Source: Eubacteriales bacterium (GTDB taxonomy: Bacteria; Bacillota; Clostridia; Oscillospirales; CAG-272). From it: a stretch of 64,000 bases of DNA. The number at the start of each line of letters is the position of its first letter. Position 1 is the stretch's first letter. The notes under the pieces were generated by a model. That model did no database searches and had not been told where the DNA came from. It worked only from the letters and a program-made list of their open reading frames with translations. The position numbers and the translations under genes were made by a program. Below, piece by piece: positions 24,883 through 64,000 of the stretch. The DNA lies in contig JBGVKV010000071.1 in NCBI GenBank assembly GCA_045123975.1, positions 15 through 64,014 on the forward strand, given 5' to 3'.

Positions 24883-25701
24883 ATGAACAGAACGTATAGA
24901 AAGCATCGCAGCACCGCGTCCATTCTCCTCACCATCACCGCCATCGCTTTGGCGGTACTGATCGCGGCGGCCGCCTTCATCTATTTTGCGGGCATCCGCT
25001 ATATCCGCTACAACTATGAGGACGGATACGTAAAATATTTCGGTCGGGTGGATGACAACGGCGATCCCCTCTCCGGTGCGCTGGTATACGAATCCGGCGT
25101 GCGGGCCAAGGTGAATCTGGAAAAGACGGAGATCTCCTACTCCAACGGCGATCTGTACGAGGGTCCCCTGAAGAATCTGCGCCGTCACGGCTATGGCCGT
25201 CTGATCTACAAAAACGGCGACGTATACGAGGGCGAATTTGCGGAGGATAAAATTTCCGGCACGGGCAAATACTCCTTCGTCAGCGGCGACGTGTACGAAG
25301 GCCAGTTCAAAAACGGACTGATGGACGGCACGGGCACTTATACCTGGCAGAACGGAAGCGTCTACACCGGCGGATTCCGTGAGGGAAAGAAGGACGGCGA
25401 AGGCACTTTCGTGTGGAACTACGGCGATCGGTACGAGGGAAGCTACCGTATGGATCAGAAATCCGGTTACGGCGTGTACACCTGGAAAAACGGCGACACC
25501 TACGCGGGTGAGTACGCGGAGGATGTCCGCAGCGGTCAGGGTGTGTACACCTGGGCCAACGGGGAAAAGTACGAGGGCTCCTTCAAGAACAACGTCATGT
25601 GGGGTGAGGGCACCTATACATGGCCCTCCGGCCGTGTGTACACGGGATATTTTGAAAACGGCGTCATCGTCCGCGTTGTGGGCGAGGAAGATACCGAATA
25701 A
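24883..25701 (+). CDS. membrane-anchored MORN-repeat protein
   Basis: AGGAGG RBS. An N-terminal TM helix is followed by 8 or more tandem ~23-aa MORN units (Y.G....G...G.G.Y....G). Confidence 0.8.
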   Translation: MNRTYRKHRSTASILLTITAIALAVLIAAAAFIYFAGIRYIRYNYEDGYVKYFGRVDDNGDPLSGALVYESGVRAKVNLEKTEISYSNGDLYEGPLKNLRRHGYGRLIYKNGDVYEGEFAEDKISGTGKYSFVSGDVYEGQFKNGLMDGTGTYTWQNGSVYTGGFREGKKDGEGTFVWNYGDRYEGSYRMDQKSGYGVYTWKNGDTYAGEYAEDVRSGQGVYTWANGEKYEGSFKNNVMWGEGTYTWPSGRVYTGYFENGVIVRVVGEEDTE

Positions 25702-25710
25702 ACAAAGAAA

Positions 25711-25744
25711 AACACCGCAGGAATGGCGGGTTCTCATAAGGAAG
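25711..25744 (+). repeat. left inverted arm of the AT-rich cassette
   Basis: AACACCGCAGGAATGGCGGGTTCTCATAAGGAAG compared with the reverse complement of 26733-26767, AACACCGCAGGATTAGGCTCGTTCTCATAAGGATG. Confidence 0.75.
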
Positions 25745-25758
25745 TTTGATATTGTTTT

Positions 25759-25806
25759 GTAGGGGCGTTCATCGAACGCCCGCGGGCGACCAATGGTCGC
25801 CCCTAC
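25759..25806. repeat. GTAG-type REP doublet (head-to-head)
   Basis: GTAGGGGCGTTCATCGAACGCCC (25759-25781, +) and GGGCGACCAATGGTCGCCCCTAC (25784-25806, -). Confidence 0.85.
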
Positions 25807-25841
25807 GGATAAACAAATCTGATCCGCAGAAAACAAAGATT

Positions 25842-25875
25842 AACCCCGACAGATTTTTGAATGTCTGTCGGGGTT
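25842..25875 (-). terminator. cassette terminator hairpin, CCCCGACAGA family
   Basis: AACCCCGACAGA-loop-TCTGTCGGGGTT, T-rich downstream on the minus strand. The same stem is present at 54885 and 63777. Confidence 0.65.
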
Positions 25876-25880
25876 AAGTA

Positions 25881-26378
25881 TTAATTCAATGAAATGCCCT
25901 CTGCATTGATTCGAATTGAGTAAAACAAATTAAAAACTTCCTCTTTAGGATTTAACGTGCGATACATATTTATCAATCTTCTTTTTCCAACTCTTCGATC
26001 AAGTATGGCGAAAATACGAACAATCATGTTTTCACTGTTCATACTTTCCTCAATGCTTTGATTGTCAAATTCTTCAAAAGCTTGATAGAAGGTATGCGGA
26101 CTGAATATGCCTAATTTTAGTGCTGTATCGTCCATATATGCGTAATTTTCTGTCATTCGCTTTTCGTATGTTTCATTATGTGGAAATAAGTGAGCTTTGC
26201 TCCAGTTGTTCCAGTAGCAACCGCTGATCAATTCTTTGCCATCTAACCGTATGGATGCTCTGCCGTGATGGTCAGGACTTTTGCTGTAAGAAGTGCAATA
26301 ATACTGAATATGTCCTCGTAATGATTCTGCAAGATACTCGTTTTCAAGTTTATGCCTAATACCGCTCCAAGTTGACAT
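25881..26378 (-). CDS. hypothetical protein (AT-rich cassette cargo)
   Basis: Start is the ATG at 26378 (GGAGG 6 nt upstream), 165 aa. GC is far below the flanks. The tail ...IFAILDRRVGKRRLINMY recalls a widespread uncharacterised family, but that is memory only. Confidence 0.6.
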   Translation of the reverse strand: MSTWSGIRHKLENEYLAESLRGHIQYYCTSYSKSPDHHGRASIRLDGKELISGCYWNNWSKAHLFPHNETYEKRMTENYAYMDDTALKLGIFSPHTFYQAFEEFDNQSIEESMNSENMIVRIFAILDRRVGKRRLINMYRTLNPKEEVFNLFYSIRINAEGISLN

Positions 26379-26395
26379 AGTCATCCTCCTGTTCT

Positions 26396-26425
26396 ATTTA
26401 TCGCCAGTTTCGCCTTTGTATTACA
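26396..26425 (-). other. conserved leader block shared with the cassette at 55263-55292
   Basis: ATTTATCGCCAGTTTCGCCTTTGTATTACA versus ATTTATCGCCGGTTTCGACTTTGTATCACA (27/30 identical), in both cases just 5' of the cargo ORF. Confidence 0.7.
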
Positions 26426-26473
26426 AAGGTACAGGGCTAAGCCCATACCCCTATTGTTGAGCGCATCCAAAGG

Positions 26474-26591
26474 CTCCCTTGTGTAAAGGGAGCTGTCACC
26501 GCAGGTGACTGAGGGATTGTGTTTCGTTGCTCTTTGTTTTTACAATCCCTCCGCCTCACATTCGTTCGGCACCTCCCTTTACACAAGGGAG
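26474..26591. repeat. hairpin-rich 118-bp insert bounded by exact 19-bp inverted repeats
   Basis: CTCCCTTGTGTAAAGGGAG (26474-26492) is the exact reverse complement of CTCCCTTTACACAAGGGAG (26573-26591). Internal hairpins are GTCACC-GCA-GGTGAC and GAGGGATTGT..ACAATCCCTC. The insert is absent from the homologous leader at 55293-55307. Confidence 0.7.
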
Positions 26592-26608
26592 GTTTTTTCG
26601 TTAGTCCC

Positions 26609-26617
26609 ATTATAACA
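26609..26617 (-). promoter_or_regulatory. extended -10 (TGTTATAAT) of cassette promoter
   Basis: The minus strand reads TGTTATAAT. The same 9-mer sits at the equivalent position of the second cassette (55308-55316). Confidence 0.45.
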
Positions 26618-26621
26618 TAAA

Positions 26622-26649
26622 TCGGCAGAGAAAAAAATATCTCTGCCGA
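26622..26649 (+). terminator. boundary hairpin upstream of cassette promoter
   Basis: TCGGCAGAG-AAAAAAATAT-CTCTGCCGA. The counterpart at 55322-55342 is CCGCAGA-AAATCAA-TCTGCGG. Confidence 0.3.
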
Positions 26650-26658
26650 AATCTGTTT

Positions 26659-26727
26659 GTAGGGGCGACCATTGGTCGCCCGTTTTGGTTTTGCGGTTAT
26701 TTGCGGGCGATCAATGATCGCCCCTAC
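26659..26727. repeat. GTAG-type REP doublet (head-to-head, 23-nt spacer)
   Basis: GTAGGGGCGACCATTGGTCGCCC (26659-26681, +) and GGGCGATCAATGATCGCCCCTAC (26705-26727, -). Confidence 0.85.
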
Positions 26728-26732
26728 GATAA

Positions 26733-26767
26733 CATCCTTATGAGAACGAGCCTAATCCTGCGGTGTT
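26733..26767 (-). repeat. right inverted arm of the AT-rich cassette
   Basis: See 25711-25744. Ends 16 bp from the RAYT stop codon. Confidence 0.75.
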
Positions 26768-26782: not shown

Positions 26783-27283
26783 TCATTCTTCGCTGTACAA
26801 CTCGTCGTATTGCCAGCGAACAGGATTTTCACAGATATATCTTACGTGTTTTTCGTAATCCTCCCGATCACGGATAACGTGATCGTAAAAGGATTTTTGC
26901 CAAATGGATTTGCCAATTTGCTTTGAAACGTATCCTTTCAGTTGTTGTACAACCCGTGACACGGTAGGGGCGACCATTGGTCGCCCGTCCTCATCGGCAC
27001 AAACTCTCAACAACAGGTGTATGTGATTGGGCATAATCACATACCAATCCGCCATGAATGCAGGGTATGTAGATGAAATGTTTTGGATTGCCTTGCTTAC
27101 GATTTCACCGCCAGAGGATAATTCTATATTTTCCGGGCGATCAATGATCGCCCCTACATTTTCCCAAAAATAATTTCGCCTGTCCTCGGTACATATTGTA
27201 ATAAAATACGCTCCACAGGAGGAGTAATCATACGTATCTAAACGATTCTTTTTTCTTTTTGGAAATTCGTTTTCCTTTTTCAC
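26783..27283 (-). CDS. REP-associated tyrosine transposase (RAYT; IS200/IS605 Y1 family)
   Basis: GTG start (AAGAGG RBS), 166 aa. HUH motif MPNHIHLLL and the C-terminal WQKSFYDHVIRD...Y..NP Tyr region. AT-rich except for two embedded GC-rich palindromes. Confidence 0.75.
   Translation of the reverse strand: MKKENEFPKRKKNRLDTYDYSSCGAYFITICTEDRRNYFWENVGAIIDRPENIELSSGGEIVSKAIQNISSTYPAFMADWYVIMPNHIHLLLRVCADEDGRPMVAPTVSRVVQQLKGYVSKQIGKSIWQKSFYDHVIRDREDYEKHVRYICENPVRWQYDELYSEE
26964..26986 (+). repeat. REP copy inside the RAYT ORF
   Basis: GTAGGGGCGACCATTGGTCGCCC, 23/23 identical to 26659-26681. Read on the gene strand it encodes DGRPMVAPT. Confidence 0.85.
27135..27157 (-). repeat. REP copy inside the RAYT ORF
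   Basis: GGGCGATCAATGATCGCCCCTAC, 23/23 identical to 26705-26727. On the gene strand GTA GGG GCG ATC ATT GAT CGC CCG encodes VGAIIDRP. Confidence 0.85.
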
Positions 27284-27342
27284 TGCGTACCTCTTATTAC
27301 AAAATCGGCAGGGGATTTCTCCCCTGCCGGAATGTGTGTATT

Positions 27343-35731: not shown

Positions 35732-35959
35732 TTTGATTTGCAATATAAAACCCGCCGTGCCGTGTGAGCGAGAAGATAGGAACCCTGCTCTCGCAAGGTG
35801 GTGCCCTCTCTTTTGTTTTGTGCTCCCAACGTCCTCAAAACCGGTCAAAGGAGCGGCAGTGAGGGAGGTCTGCATCCCGCAAAATGAAGTCCGGGCTCCA
35901 AGTATCTGTTGTGGGTCCACGAAATCGCCCATCACCAACACCGCAGGCTGACAGCGAAT
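35732..35959 (-). ncRNA. candidate structured sRNA or long 3' UTR downstream of the DUF1292 gene (unclassified)
   Basis: A ~230-nt GC-rich segment with no convincing ORF lies between the DUF1292 stop (35960) and the terminator at 35698-35731. The 5' CCTGCGGTG... and 3' ...CACGGCACGGCGGG ends can pair. I could not assign a family. Confidence 0.25.
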
Positions 35960-53537: not shown

Positions 53538-54857
53538 ATGAAAATTACGTTTATGGGTGCGGGAAGTACCGTCTTTTCCAAAAACGTGCTGGGAGATACC
53601 ATGCTGTGCGATTTGTTCCACGACGTGGAAATAGCCCTGTACGACATCGACGCCCAGCGTCTGGAGGATTCCTATCGCCTTATTACGGCGATGAATCGAA
53701 GCATCAACGAAAACCGGGCCACGGTGAAGAAATATCTGGGCGTGGATAACCGGAGGGAGGCTCTTCGCGGGGCGGATTTCGTGGTGAACGCCATTCAGGT
53801 GGGTTTGTACGATCCCTGCACCATCATCGATTTTGAGATTCCCAAAAAATACGGCCTCCGTCAGACCATTGCCGATACGTTGGGCATCGGCGGTATCTTC
53901 CGCGGTCTGCGTACCATCCACGTGATGAAGGATTTCGCACGGGATATAGAGGCGGTATGCCCCAACGCGTGGCTGCTTAACTATACCAATCCCATGGCCA
54001 TCCTCTCGGGATATATGCAGCGGTACACCGGCGTCAAGACCGTGGGACTGTGCCACAGCGTGCAGGTGTGCGCCAAATCTCTTCTGAAGGGAGTGGGAAT
54101 GGAGGAATACCTCCCCGGATGCGTGACAAAGATTGCCGGCATCAACCATATGGCGTGGCTGCTGGAAATCTGCGATAAGGACGGACGGGATCTGTATCCC
54201 GAGATCCGCCGCCGTGCCAGGGAGAAGAATGCCACAGAGAAGCATAGCGATATGGTTCGCTTCGACTATATCGAGAAATTGGGCTACTACTGCACGGAAA
54301 GCAGCGAGCACAACGCGGAATACAATCCCTTCTACATCAAGGCGGGACGGGAGGATCTGATTGAGAAGTTCAACATTCCCCTGGACGAATATCCCCGCCG
54401 CTGTGTGAAGCATATCGAGCGCTGGGCGGCACAGAGAGAAGAATTGATGAACGGGGGCGACGTGCAGCACACCCGCTCCAAGGAGTATGCCTCCCGCATT
54501 ATGGAGGCCATCACCACCGGCAAACCCATCAAGATCGGCGGCAACGTGATCAATCACGGATGCATTTCCAATCTGCCCCCCGAGGCTTGCGTGGAGGTGC
54601 CCTGTATCGTGGATAAAAACGGCATTACGCCCACCTACGTGGGGGATCTGCCCCTGCAGCTGGCGGCTATGAACGCCTCCAATATCTATCCCCAGCTCCT
54701 CACCATTGAGGCGGCCCGCACCGGAAAGATGGAGTACGTATACCAGGCCGCCATGATGGATCCCCACACCGGCGCCCAGCTTTCCACCGACGAGATCGTT
54801 TCCCTGTGCAACGATCTGCGGGAAGCCCACGAGGCGGCCGGATATCCGGTATTTTAA
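53538..54857 (+). CDS. melA: GH4 alpha-galactosidase/alpha-glucosidase (NAD/Mn-dependent)
   Basis: Trimmed to the ATG at 53538 (AAAGGAG RBS). MKITFMGAGSTVF Rossmann N-terminus, GLCHSVQ, INHMAW; 439 aa. Confidence 0.8.
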   Translation: MKITFMGAGSTVFSKNVLGDTMLCDLFHDVEIALYDIDAQRLEDSYRLITAMNRSINENRATVKKYLGVDNRREALRGADFVVNAIQVGLYDPCTIIDFEIPKKYGLRQTIADTLGIGGIFRGLRTIHVMKDFARDIEAVCPNAWLLNYTNPMAILSGYMQRYTGVKTVGLCHSVQVCAKSLLKGVGMEEYLPGCVTKIAGINHMAWLLEICDKDGRDLYPEIRRRAREKNATEKHSDMVRFDYIEKLGYYCTESSEHNAEYNPFYIKAGREDLIEKFNIPLDEYPRRCVKHIERWAAQREELMNGGDVQHTRSKEYASRIMEAITTGKPIKIGGNVINHGCISNLPPEACVEVPCIVDKNGITPTYVGDLPLQLAAMNASNIYPQLLTIEAARTGKMEYVYQAAMMDPHTGAQLSTDEIVSLCNDLREAHEAAGYPVF

Positions 54858-54884
54858 AATTTGCTCCGCAGTAAACAAATAATT

Positions 54885-54917
54885 AACGCCGACAGACTTT
54901 AAAAATCTGTCGGCGTT
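54885..54917 (-). terminator. cassette terminator hairpin, CCGACAGA family
   Basis: AACGCCGACAGA-CTTTAAAAA-TCTGTCGGCGTT, preceded by TCCGCAGTAAACAAATAATT as at 25823-25841. Confidence 0.65.
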
Positions 54918-54947
54918 CGCTATTTGATAAATTGGGATTGGTCTGTT

Positions 54948-55226
54948 TTAGTGTTGTCTGACTTCGTCATAGTATTTTTGGAAACGTTCTTTGTTGAATA
55001 TAAGAATTTTATATTTTTGTCCGTTCTTCATATGGAATGTTGCAATAGGGAATACAACCCATTTCCACGTGAGTTCGGAGATTTCATCAAGCGGTAATAT
55101 AAGATTCCTGTATGCTTTATCTACTGTGAGTTTATTCGTCTTATAAGTAACCGAATTTTCGTCAAGATATAAAGCACCGCCTAATATTCCATTATGGCAT
55201 AGGCTACATATAAATGTTTTTCTCAT
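54948..55226 (-). CDS. hypothetical small protein (AT-rich cassette cargo)
   Basis: 92 aa with GC far below the flanks. No motif recognised. Confidence 0.55.
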   Translation of the reverse strand: MRKTFICSLCHNGILGGALYLDENSVTYKTNKLTVDKAYRNLILPLDEISELTWKWVVFPIATFHMKNGQKYKILIFNKERFQKYYDEVRQH

Positions 55227-55262
55227 ATGAATGACCTCGTCAAATTCTAATGTATCATTCGG

Positions 55263-55292
55263 ATTTATCGCCGGTTTCGACTTTGTATCACA
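55263..55292 (-). other. conserved leader block shared with 26396-26425
   Basis: ATTTATCGCCGGTTTCGACTTTGTATCACA followed by GCTAAGC, as in the other cassette. Confidence 0.7.
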
Positions 55293-55307
55293 GCTAAGCT
55301 ACACCTT

Positions 55308-55316
55308 ATTATAACA
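55308..55316 (-). promoter_or_regulatory. extended -10 (TGTTATAAT) of cassette promoter
   Basis: The same 9-mer at the same relative position as 26609-26617. Confidence 0.45.
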
Positions 55317-55321
55317 CAATT

Positions 55322-55342
55322 CCGCAGAAAATCAATCTGCGG
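55322..55342 (+). terminator. boundary hairpin upstream of cassette promoter
   Basis: CCGCAGA-AAATCAA-TCTGCGG + TTTCTTATTT. Confidence 0.35.
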
Positions 55343-55449
55343 TTTCTTATTTACTGTTTTTTTCTTGTTCACACCTTATGTATTGTTTTCCCACAAAATT
55401 TCCTATATAATGATATCATCCATTCTTATACGATAAAAAGGGTTTGCCA

Positions 55450-63776: not shown

Positions 63777-63805
63777 CCCCGACAGATTTTTTAAGTCTGT
63801 CGGGG
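63777..63805 (-). terminator. cassette terminator hairpin, CCCCGACAGA family
   Basis: CCCCGACAGA-TTTTTTAAG-TCTGTCGGGG, with TGTTTTT downstream on the minus strand. Confidence 0.65.
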
Positions 63806-63815
63806 CAATTTTGTA

Positions 63816-64000
63816 CTACTCATATATTTTTCCCATATATAGGATTCTCGCTATTACGGAGTAATCGATTTTATTCCAATCAATATCGTTATATTGGCAT
63901 TTCGAGAAATCATTAACCCATGCTATCATCGCGTCTAAATATTCATCAATAGAATCACGTTCCCATTCCTGCGAATTTTCCCGATAATCATTAATAAGCA
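63816..64000 (-). CDS. hypothetical protein, C-terminal 60 aa (5' end beyond the window)
   Basis: The minus frame is open to the window edge: ...DYRENSQEWERDSIDEYLDAMIAWVNDFSKCQYNDIDWNKIDYSVIARILYMGKIYE*. AT-rich, and resembles small immunity-like orphan proteins (memory only). Confidence 0.5.
   Translation of the reverse strand, partial: LINDYRENSQEWERDSIDEYLDAMIAWVNDFSKCQYNDIDWNKIDYSVIARILYMGKIYE

Follow-up and report, generated by a model that had tools for sequence, protein, structure and literature searches.

A probable family of mobile expression cassettes in gut Clostridia whose complete copies lie in terminator loops

We analyzed a 64,000-nucleotide stretch of DNA from an Eubacteriales bacterium (assembly GCA_045123975.1, contig JBGVKV010000071.1, positions 15 to 64,014 of the forward strand; hereafter the window), and in particular an AT-rich insert, locus A, located between melA (GH4) and S8. 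Two further AT-rich inserts in the window, loci B and C, carry small minus-strand genes and conserved blocks of the same kind. We consider it likely that cassette A belongs, as a core-only copy, to a family of nonautonomous mobile expression cassettes in gut Clostridia, complete copies of which insert in the loops of transcription terminators. A previous interpretation, made without database searches (the sequence-only reading), had proposed a family of mobile promoter-plus-cargo cassettes placed after convergent core genes; this proposal is backed by the further cassettes, the polymorphism, and the exclusivity of the modules described below.

Three inserts with shared modules

Six modules were defined: PROM, LEAD, TERM, END3, and two blocks at the boundary, B1 and B2. 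In the window they are found at the three inserts alone, and other genes lack them. The inserts have GC contents of 0.395 (A), 0.405 (B), and 0.402 (C), as compared with 0.556 for the whole window. Their features are the following (aa, amino acids; UTR, untranslated region; TIR, terminal inverted repeat; REP, repetitive extragenic palindrome; REPIN, doublet of REPs; RAYT, REP-associated tyrosine transposase).

54857-55356: locus A, core-only cassette, AT-rich insert between melA (GH4) and S8
54859..54881, minus strand: END3 block of cassette A, gene strand TATTTGTTTACTGCGGAGCAAAT
54885..54917, minus strand: TERM of cassette A, family-specific intrinsic terminator hairpin AACGCCGACAGA-loop-TCTGTCGGCGTT, then T-rich tail
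54948..55226, minus strand: cargo of A, 92-aa protein with predicted PH/GRAM-like fold
55227..55303, minus strand: 5' UTR of A, a shortened LEAD, with conserved core GTCGAAACCGGCGATAAAT at 55263-55281
55308..55342, minus strand: PROM of cassette A, hairpin CCGCAGA-loop-TCTGCGG (55322-55342)
55343..55356, minus strand: 5' edge of A, gene strand CAGTAAATAAGAAA, an inverted copy (12/14) of CAGTAAACAAATAA at 54868-54881
25713..25724, no strand: left flank of B, putative split host terminator arm CACCGCAGG (25713-25721) and AAT duplication (25722-25724)
25725..26753, minus strand: element B, complete and TIR-bounded, 1029 bp
25725-25747 and 26731-26753: TIRs of element B
25759-25806 and 26659-26727: REPINs of element B
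25817-25839: END3 of element B
25842-25875: TERM of element B
25881-26384, minus strand: cargo of element B, SF0329 family, 167 aa
26396-26453: LEAD of element B
26473-26592: GC-rich inverted-repeat insert between PROM and LEAD of element B
26609-26648: PROM of element B
26754..26765, no strand: right flank of B, putative second AAT copy (26754-26756) and arm CCTGCGGTG (26757-26765), then TTTT
26783..27283, minus strand: RAYT-like gene outside element B, co-oriented with the cargo
63777..63805, minus strand: TERM of cassette C, CCCCGACAGA-loop-TCTGTCGGGG, 7 nt past the stop of a nifS-like gene (63770)
63816..64000, minus strand: C-terminal part of the cargo of C, DUF7660, 83 aa in full, AT-rich, running off the window end

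Cassette C was completed from strain contigs, in which it reads RAYT-LEAD-DUF7660-TERM.

The blocks common to A and B fall into three local alignments, which comprise the boundary and terminator hairpin (54857-54924 and 25815-25882, 78% over 69 nt), the leader (55263-55303 and 26396-26433, 83% over 41 nt), and the -10 element with its hairpin (55308-55331 and 26609-26632, 83% over 24 nt). The cargo open reading frames (ORFs), both on the minus strand, are unrelated (92 and 167 aa). Direct reading and local alignment found every block that the sequence-only reading had listed for the two loci. Its 92-aa cargo of A stands, while its figure of 165 aa for the cargo of B counts from a later Met in the 167-aa frame. 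The sharing of blocks between A and B is far beyond chance: the 30-mer pattern of the leader has exactly two matches in the window (0 expected from 100 shuffles), the hairpin CCGACAGA..TCTGTCGG has three (25846, 54889, and 63779; 0 expected), and TCCGCAGWAAACAAA at two or fewer mismatches also has three (25823, 54865, and 55321; 0.14 expected). It was the hairpin search that brought up the third TERM copy (63779-63803), after which the AT-rich minus-strand ORF of cassette C follows.

The modules are exclusive to cassettes and are not generic signals. LEAD, TERM, PROM, and B1 had no match in 1.1 Mb of control DNA, which consisted of 462 kb from 80 loci that encode melA protein relatives and 640 kb from 87 loci with a chance match to a search pattern. 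One near-match each was found there for END3, B2, and the 5' half of LEAD, none of them beside a cassette. Across the at least 33 true loci described below, the modules co-occur. The sequence-only reading had named use of the blocks by ordinary core genes as an outcome that would speak against mobility, and no such use was seen in the window or, for LEAD, TERM, and PROM, in the control. It had also noticed no integrase or transposase next to A; likewise none was seen among the surrounding ORFs, which were read by eye without a Pfam run.

In cassette A, END3 adjoins the melA stop codon (54855-54857) and contains one arm of a 14-nt inverted repeat (54868-54881). The TERM hairpin has an RNA folding energy of -31.9 kcal/mol (z = -6.45). 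GCTTAGC, a remnant of the first LEAD hairpin (P1), lies in the 5' UTR at about 55292-55300. The -35 element of PROM (TTGATT) is located in the hairpin loop and is followed by an extended -10 element (TGtTATAAT, with TATAAT at 55308-55313). An independent consensus scan of the minus strand of A called an intrinsic terminator (54917-54885) as well as a promoter that agrees with the consensus at 10 of 12 positions (TTGATT-16-TGtTATAAT, 55335-55308). We also considered LEAD as an internal promoter; its TTGTAA-17-CGATAA fails the consensus criteria, and the scan of A called none at this place.

The 92-aa cargo of A belongs to a real protein family (202 clusters at E <= 1e-3) and has a weak Pfam match to GRAM. 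A PH/GRAM-like fold is confidently predicted. The AlphaFold2 model has a predicted local distance difference test score (pLDDT) of 95, and Foldseek matches it to PH and PH-GRAM domains, the best matches in the PDB being the PH domains of GRK2, MTMR6, Rtt106/SSRP1, and Lam6. A GC-rich homolog, 59% identical, is encoded on a 609-nt contig (L236). Its flanks bear a faint resemblance to LEAD before the ribosome-binding site (..TGTACAACCCGCAGCAAATGATAAATCTCGA..) and to the hairpin modules past the stop (CGGACAGAG..CCTGCCG). Judging from this contig, the chassis may diverge jointly with its cargo in other lineages.

A cassette family across gut Clostridia

Species-representative genomes were scanned with the 3' core of the leader, GNCGAAACNGGCGATAAAT, which has 17 fixed bases. 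At least 119 stretches matched, with about 70 chance hits expected. At least 33 loci share the whole leader. These derive from about 29 metagenome-assembled genomes (MAGs) of Clostridia/Oscillospiraceae, all labeled Eubacteriales, Oscillospiraceae, or Clostridia and coming from human and animal guts. Comparison loci and contigs, taken from MAGs or metagenome assemblies, are denoted by L-numbers (e.g., L003 and L114).

LEAD is a conserved 5' UTR of roughly 60 nt with the 3' end GGCGATAAAT. Its consensus on the gene strand is TAGGGGTATGGGCTTTGCCC-nnn-GCCTTTGTAATACAAAGGCGAAACTGGCGATAAAT, followed by 6-50 variable nucleotides with a ribosome-binding site and then the start codon. It is located upstream of a cargo ORF in the 33 listed loci, and 17 copies of TERM and 14 of END3 are found downstream. 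Across species, many cargos are followed by the hairpin (A)CCCCGACAGA-loop-TCTGTCGGGG and then by END3 (consensus TAATTATTTGTTTWCTGCGGATCAAAT). The stem of PROM usually takes the form TTTCGGCAGAG..CTCTGCCGA, with the -35 and extended -10 elements in its loop and tail, and each cassette has its own TGnTATAAT promoter. The terminator-like hairpin of PROM would block read-through from upstream and start transcription afresh. The symmetric hairpin of TERM could terminate transcription of both the cargo and the convergent host gene, which would offset the splitting of the host terminator. LEAD may serve as a standard 5' end and translation-initiation context or as a recombination handle.

About 24 unrelated small proteins make up the cargos of the listed loci. 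They include SF0329, two GNAT acetyltransferases, a P-loop kinase-like protein, DUF7660, DUF3885, DUF4279, DUF2750, and several small membrane proteins. The further cassettes with other cargos to which the sequence-only reading had tied its proposal do exist. Between PROM and LEAD, many copies have a DUF559 gene or only its GC-rich 3' remnant, and two copies have a four-helix-bundle gene (TIGR02436); the arrangement suggests an ancestral layout of PROM, first gene, LEAD, and cargo. The insert at 26473-26592 in element B is roughly 120 nt long and GC-rich, with inverted-repeat arms GCTCCCTTGTGTAAAGGGAGC / CCTCCCTTTACACAAGGGAGG. A hairpin of the same kind is the terminator after DUF2750 in L003, and the related GC-rich stretch between promoter and leader in other copies is the DUF559 3' remnant.

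The same cassette is nearly identical in different species. The SF0329 cassette of B recurs in four other species representatives, where homology does not extend past the cassette edges into the flanks, which are unrelated. DNA identities are 98.2% over 567 nt (L057), 95.2% over 650 nt (L121), 90.3% over 874 nt (L093), and 87.5% over 617 nt (L100). Other cargos behave likewise, for example in the pairs L018/L038, L058/L087, L016/L047, and L089/L112. Depending on the species, any of five upstream modules precedes the LEAD-SF0329-TERM core; these include a bare promoter, a promoter with a REPIN, a promoter with a GC-rich inverted-repeat element, and the end of another gene.

Searches of viral contigs for LEAD and TIR gave no matches, and those of plasmid and phage collections gave only distant, unannotated SF0329 homologs.

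Some cassettes are preceded by a tandem repeat (L121, 2450-2620; L112, 6860-7030; also L038, L057, L089, and L099). Its unit consists of AATATCACT and a 5-6-bp hairpin with a tetraloop; the stems vary between units and the spacer is conserved. Past repeats of the L121/L112 type, a promoter (TTGACT-17-TATAAT) drives a four-helix-bundle gene or a cassette.

Complete elements in terminator loops

Complete copies have an extra block outside PROM and END3, in inverse orientation at the two ends (TIR, about 17-25 nt). Two forms of it are represented by GGCTSSTTCTCATAAGGAWGT and CTTAGCGGAGAA. The TIR is of the type (GGCTSS)TTCTCATAAGGAWGTTT or of the diverged type CTTAGCGGAGAA/GATTTCTCCGMTAAGAACATCAC. 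The sequence TTCTCATAAGGAWGTT is present in inverse orientation at both ends in element B of the window, L028, L114, and L116. In L011, a TTCTCATAAGGAWGTT end is paired with a diverged right end of B1 type, and L047 has CTTAGCGGAGAA TIRs. The block 'GATTTCTCCGATAAGAACATCAC' was considered as the end of a conserved neighboring gene; the neighboring genes differ, and the block is a diverged TIR.

Six elements combine TIRs with locus-specific, mutually complementary outer arms beside an A run and a T run. Examples of these arms are as follows.

Window B: AAAACACCGCAGG
L116: AAAAAGGCACTGT
L011: AAAAAGCCAAACG
L114: AAAAAATGCGTTC
L047: AAAAAAGCAATGCC

The arms vary by locus and are intact in empty sites, and we rejected them as part of the element. 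We read them as a bidirectional terminator of the host that was split by insertion, and empty sites show this in two cases.

The first case is between species. L011 and two sister species have the same gene order (aminotransferase-ROK-tktB-tktA), and the ROK relatives are 89% and 83% identical. In the two sister species, the ROK-tktB spacer is 39-47 nt in length and forms an intact hairpin, AAGCCAAACGC-tttc-GCGTTTGGCTT. The spacer of L011 is 674 nt in length and contains a 612-nt element, with the hairpin split and its arms at the outer ends.

The second case is within a species. The acyltransferase beside the L114 element is encoded, with identical sequence, on 14 contigs, of which two (including L225) are filled and at least 11 are empty. 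The empty allele (L227 and L230) reads AAAAAATGCGTTCTTTTAAGAACGCATTTTTT, in short TGCGTTCTTTTAAGAACGCA. The filled allele reads ...GCGTTCT[TTTA]TGCTGGTTCTCATAAGGACG...CTTCCTTATGAGAAGTCCGC[TTTA]AGAACGC... (in short, ..GTTCT[TTTA]TGCTGGTTCTCATAAGGA....TCCTTATGAGAAGTCCGC[TTTA]AGAAC..). L114/L225 is a clean insertion into the terminator loop with a 4-bp target duplication, TTTA. Filled and empty alleles for these two complete family members, together with one, two, or three cassettes at melA-S8, provide the insertion polymorphism for which the sequence-only reading had asked.

Two forms of the empty terminator exist, TGCGTTC-TTTTAA-GAACGCA and TGCGTTC-TTAAAA-GAACGCA, the loop of one being the exact inverse of that of the other, as seen by comparing L226, L228, and L229 with L227 and L230 in the acyltransferase-PMI spacer (about position 3245 in L226). 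The inversion could be a template-switch event at the hairpin or a footprint of insertion and excision.

By analogy with these directly demonstrated empty sites, the flanks of element B appear to be a split terminator with a target duplication. When the arms at locus B, which lies between a convergent MORN-repeat gene and RAYT/thrS, are rejoined, they form a perfect stem of 9 bp around a loop of 3 nt, and the duplication is AAT. The duplications reconstructed for other elements are TTT (L011), TTG (L116), and ATT (L047). An empty site for locus B was not found: neither the MORN-repeat neighbor nor the RAYT is on record, and the closest homologs of the MORN-repeat protein are 50% identical or fragments. 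This protein (24883-25701) has no close relative among 5.8 billion proteins (best full-length match, 50-53% identical), which suggests that the host species is poorly sampled. For cassette C, no empty site was found either, five of five strain contigs being filled.

Copy A, mode of movement, and related systems

Copy A consists of the inner core only, namely PROM, shortened LEAD, cargo, TERM, and END3. In same-species strain contigs, the melA-S8 spacer occurs in three states, which diverge from the S8 flank at a single nucleotide position (55356/55357).

State 1: 497-501 nt, A alone
State 2: 1113 nt, DUF559 cassette and A without its own PROM
State 3: 1718 nt, DUF2750, DUF559, and A

The three-cassette state (L003) contains the leader twice, and the leader in the window looks like a mosaic of both copies. 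We therefore think that the array was remodeled by recombination between shared modules. Most likely, copy A arrived or was remodeled through such module-level recombination or is a decayed complete element.

The 11-mer TCCGCAG(T/A)AAA, present at both edges of A, had been likened in the sequence-only reading to a duplicated target site or core. It belongs instead to two related internal modules, being an arm of the promoter hairpin at one edge and a part of END3 at the other. Most family members have CTCTGCCGA as the promoter arm, so that copy A alone shows the direct repeat. What is truly duplicated at the target is a group of 3-4 A/T-rich nucleotides of the loop, located beyond the outer TIRs.

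Complete elements show presence/absence variation between strains and between sister species. This variation, along with the TIRs, the variable target duplication, and the lack of a transposase, identifies them as probable nonautonomous transposons with passenger genes. On the gene strand, the order in a complete element is outer TIR, PROM, optional first gene (DUF559, RAYT, or four-helix-bundle protein, or a remnant), LEAD, a cargo slot occupied by a small AT-rich gene, TERM, END3, and inverse TIR. Insertion would occur in trans, through a transposase that makes a short staggered cut and recognizes the hairpin loop; this enzyme would be of the DDE type, like those of the REP-loop-targeting IS1397/ISKpn1. 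Recombination between near-identical LEAD, TERM/END3, and PROM copies would generate the diversity of cargos and the arrays of one to three cassettes at melA-S8. PROM, LEAD, and TERM would together make the cargo an insulated, self-sufficient transcription unit and would also provide the two neighboring host genes with termination again, their own terminator having been split.

Several points weigh against this explanation. A within-species target duplication was demonstrated once (L114/L225), and the others are reconstructed from arm complementarity or from species that differ by ~11-17% in a neighboring protein. Agreement between the two TIRs is poor in their outermost 6 nt (TGCTGG and GCGGAC in L114). 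Every sequence used for comparison comes from a metagenome assembly or MAG, in which repeats can be misassembled; filled and empty alleles are each backed by several independent contigs. The loci were picked by an exact 3' LEAD pattern, which biases family size and conservation and makes the counts lower bounds. A transposase with matching ends was not found, and the enzyme class follows from the TIRs and target duplication only; among the 33 loci, which were collected by LEAD, no autonomous element with the same ends and a transposase was seen. RAYT genes and REPINs are enriched at cassettes, leaving room for a single-strand HUH mechanism. Copy A itself has the inner 14-nt inverted repeat in place of outer TIRs and a split terminator. 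The empty melA-S8 junction that the sequence-only reading had suggested looking for was not found: all contigs with an identical melA protein are filled, and in a metagenome scan the relatives were at most 77% identical, with synteny already lost in the closest. The mode of arrival of copy A is accordingly unproven, there being no demonstrated empty site for it.

It is possible, though on balance we doubt it, that copy A and the melA-S8 arrays were built purely by homologous recombination through the modules, with transposition limited to the TIR-bounded relatives. The makeup of A accords with this, as do the left junction shared by the three array states, the recurring leader copies, and the mosaic leader of the window. 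Modules are also >90% identical over 60-100 nt, and the SF0329 core has been joined to its five upstream modules. However, recombination leaves unexplained how the first cassette arrived between melA and S8, where homology would have been lacking, and the 14-nt inverted repeat of A, located exactly at the polymorphic junction, hints at a defined end.

We think it unlikely that a RAYT (HUH/Y1 enzyme) moves the cassettes as single-stranded DNA, with the hairpins of PROM and TERM, the small palindromes of the TIRs, and the REPINs as recognition structures, which would make the family an extension of the REPIN-RAYT system that carries cargo. In L016, L047, L081, L094, and cassette C, a RAYT-like gene is directly adjacent to LEAD, and in cassette C its stop codon shares bases with the beginning of LEAD. 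The RAYT gene of L047 and L094 follows PROM and a left-end TIR, and L047 has a matching right-end TIR as well. Element B has another RAYT-like gene 30 nt beyond its end (79 bits for NCBIfam REP_Tyr_transpos, the cutoff being 80), the genome of the window having at least two. Element B has two REPINs (GTAGGGGCGACCATTGGTCGCCC type) inside its TIRs. All 10 REP hits in the window fall in locus B, and the density of REP-like seeds in cassette spans is 12 times that in the remainder of the loci that contain them. The motif CGRCAGA is common to the stems of PROM and TERM, and insertion is directed at a hairpin loop, which single-stranded DNA can form. Against this, Y1 enzymes of the IS200/IS605 type use neither TIRs nor target duplications, and both are present, including in L047 (ATT). 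About 28 of 34 cassettes have no RAYT nearby, and copy A has neither RAYT nor REPINs. The REPINs occupy symmetric sites inside the TIR regions, as if inserted secondarily, and L114 is complete yet free of REPINs. RAYT could be one more passenger, and as the RAYT-bearing L047 element has TIRs and a reconstructed duplication, passenger is more likely than driver.

A broader version of this idea strikes us as similarly speculative. Cassettes, REPINs, and RAYT-like genes would form one system, a Firmicute counterpart of the integron, in which a domesticated HUH/Y1 enzyme or the small DUF559 nuclease, apparently encoded by the ancestral first gene, inserts promoter-equipped cassettes into single-stranded terminator loops and shuffles their cargos, and in which RAYTs spread horizontally as passengers or drivers.

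Both RAYT-like genes of the species contain a pair of inverted REPs in frame, at homologous positions that bracket the HUH motif (26964-26986 and 27135-27157 within the RAYT ORF 26783-27283 of the window; 2230-2253 and 2400-2423 on the reverse complement of L214). The two genes carry different REP classes, GTAGGGGCGATCATTGATCGCCC and GTAGGGGAGGGGCTTGCTCCTCCC. Either REPs entered the gene at positions encoding loops that tolerate them or the gene is the source of the REPs. The interval from the thrS stop to the RAYT start contains a hairpin (27306-27330), CCGGCAGGGG-agaaat-CCCCTGCCG, followed by ATTTTGTAATAAG. It resembles the PROM module, so that the RAYT gene, too, has the appearance of a cassette-type insertion behind thrS. 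L116 likewise has a complete element directly behind thrS.

That LEAD is a structured cis-regulatory RNA (riboswitch or ribozyme), conserved for that function and only secondarily linked to mobility, is improbable. LEAD can be drawn with two hairpins, P1 (GGGC-loop-GCCC, with variable loops) and P2 (GCCTTTGT-AAT-ACAAAGGC), which are 92% paired across 28 sequences, and one variant has an extra hairpin inserted inside P2. Nevertheless, none of the 12 pairs shows a compensatory change, among sequences that are very similar and were picked by an exact pattern. Folding is no better than that of shuffled sequence (z = +0.22, for the 5' UTR of A, and -1.39). The modules have no match in Rfam 15 at gathering thresholds on the window or at E-value thresholds on six loci. 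The genes downstream are functionally unrelated (about 24 cargos), unlike a riboswitch regulon.

An integron-like mechanism, in which a site-specific recombinase captures cassettes at a folded attC-like site, is very improbable. It would account for the co-oriented arrays of small cassettes with unrelated cargos, for the conserved intergenic hairpins, and for the involvement of a hairpin in targeting. However, no integrase was seen in the window or in ORF maps of eight loci, read without a Pfam run. The terminator stems are perfect and lack R''/L''-L'/R' organization and extrahelical bases, and each cassette has its own promoter, whereas integron cassettes lack promoters and stand behind an IntI integrase gene with attI and Pc. 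Single elements occupy different terminators, with TIRs and variable 3-4-bp duplications and no fixed crossover core. The notion that the blocks are ordinary shared regulatory sequences unrelated to mobility, to which the functional-looking promoter and terminator lend some appeal, is refuted by their absence from other window genes and, for LEAD, TERM, and PROM, from the control DNA, by cross-species near-identity on unrelated flanks, and by the filled and empty alleles.

Nonautonomous mobile cassettes have precedents. Mobile insertion cassettes (MICs; e.g., MIC231 of Bacillus cereus) are small and bounded by TIRs, have passenger genes in place of a transposase, generate a short target duplication, and are presumed to be mobilized in trans. 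Like MICs or ORF-carrying miniature inverted-repeat transposable elements (MITEs), the cassettes have TIRs, a short duplication, passenger genes, and presence/absence polymorphism, and no transposase lies inside the elements except for the RAYT-like gene in some copies. Unlike MICs, they place interchangeable cargos in a standardized chassis of promoter, leader, and terminator, have terminator loops as their target, occur in arrays, and are spread over many Clostridia species, and no cognate insertion sequence is known for them.

IS1397 and ISKpn1, of the IS3 family, reportedly insert into the loop of a hairpin with a 3-4-bp duplication. The cassettes resemble them in being inserted into the loop of an extragenic palindrome with a 3-4-bp duplication, which is a working likeness and not family membership. 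These insertion sequences are autonomous and target REP/PU repeats, whereas the cassettes lack a transposase and target ordinary terminators with locus-specific stems. IS3-type elements have TG...CA ends and an orfAB transposase with a frameshift; in L114 the left end starts with TG and the right end finishes with GC, and the ends of other copies differ. Correia elements of Neisseria are small intergenic TIR elements that bring promoter and terminator activity; unlike the cassettes, they lack an ORF, duplicate TA, and are found outside terminator loops. An IS200/IS605-type element or its gene-less derivative (PATE), which would have subterminal hairpins without TIRs or a target duplication and insert 3' of a fixed tetra- or pentanucleotide, was considered and rejected, as TIRs and a variable 3-4-bp duplication are present. 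For insertion sequences that target extragenic palindromes, the choice of target has been attributed to the transposase (Tobes and Pareja 2006, PMC1525189).

Similarity to REPIN-RAYT systems (REPtrons) lies in the GTAG-tagged REP doublets and RAYT gene at locus B and in the RAYT gene abutting C, and does not extend to A. REPINs are gene-free and have been described as vertically inherited with single-copy RAYTs, whereas here RAYTs occur inside or beside TIR-bounded, horizontally spreading cassettes. Clostridia are reported to have group 1 RAYTs, which are accompanied by few REPs and may have been transferred horizontally (PMC5581495).

The cassettes share with integron cassettes and with the recombinase-associated orphan-immunity arrays (rAID) of Bacteroidales their co-oriented arrays, small unrelated accessory genes, and conserved intergenic sequence. 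Several cargo families are presumably of the kind listed as immunity-like proteins. Unlike those systems, the cassettes have their own promoters, TIRs, and target duplications, occur as single copies dispersed at terminators, and lack attC; no integrase or recombinase was seen. The surroundings of TERM were considered as attC-like, and this was rejected: the flanking AAC/GTT-like bases are not conserved, and TERM is a perfect 10-bp stem with a T-rich tail.

Literature searches found no description of the cassette family, nor of SF0329 as a gene family. The combination of chassis, cargos, loop targeting, arrays, entanglement with RAYT and REPIN, and wide spread in gut Clostridia appears to be new. 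It defines a widespread vehicle for small accessory genes in uncultured gut Clostridia, with boundaries at the sequence level and empty sites. Most operons are followed by a terminator loop, where an element can insert and leave genes intact. Such insertion would explain "orphan" AT-rich genes located between convergent core genes in these genomes. The conserved modules provide a simple signature for cataloguing cargos in metagenomes, and the RAYT genes in a mobile, multi-copy context bear on whether inheritance of RAYTs and REPINs is strictly vertical. For Oscillospiraceae that are genetically intractable, the compact chassis of promoter, leader, and terminator could be of use as an expression cassette.

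Apart from the inserts, no tRNA genes were found in the window, and the sole Rfam family above its gathering score there is 6S RNA (RF00013, 57.4 bits), located at 35745-35952 on the minus strand.

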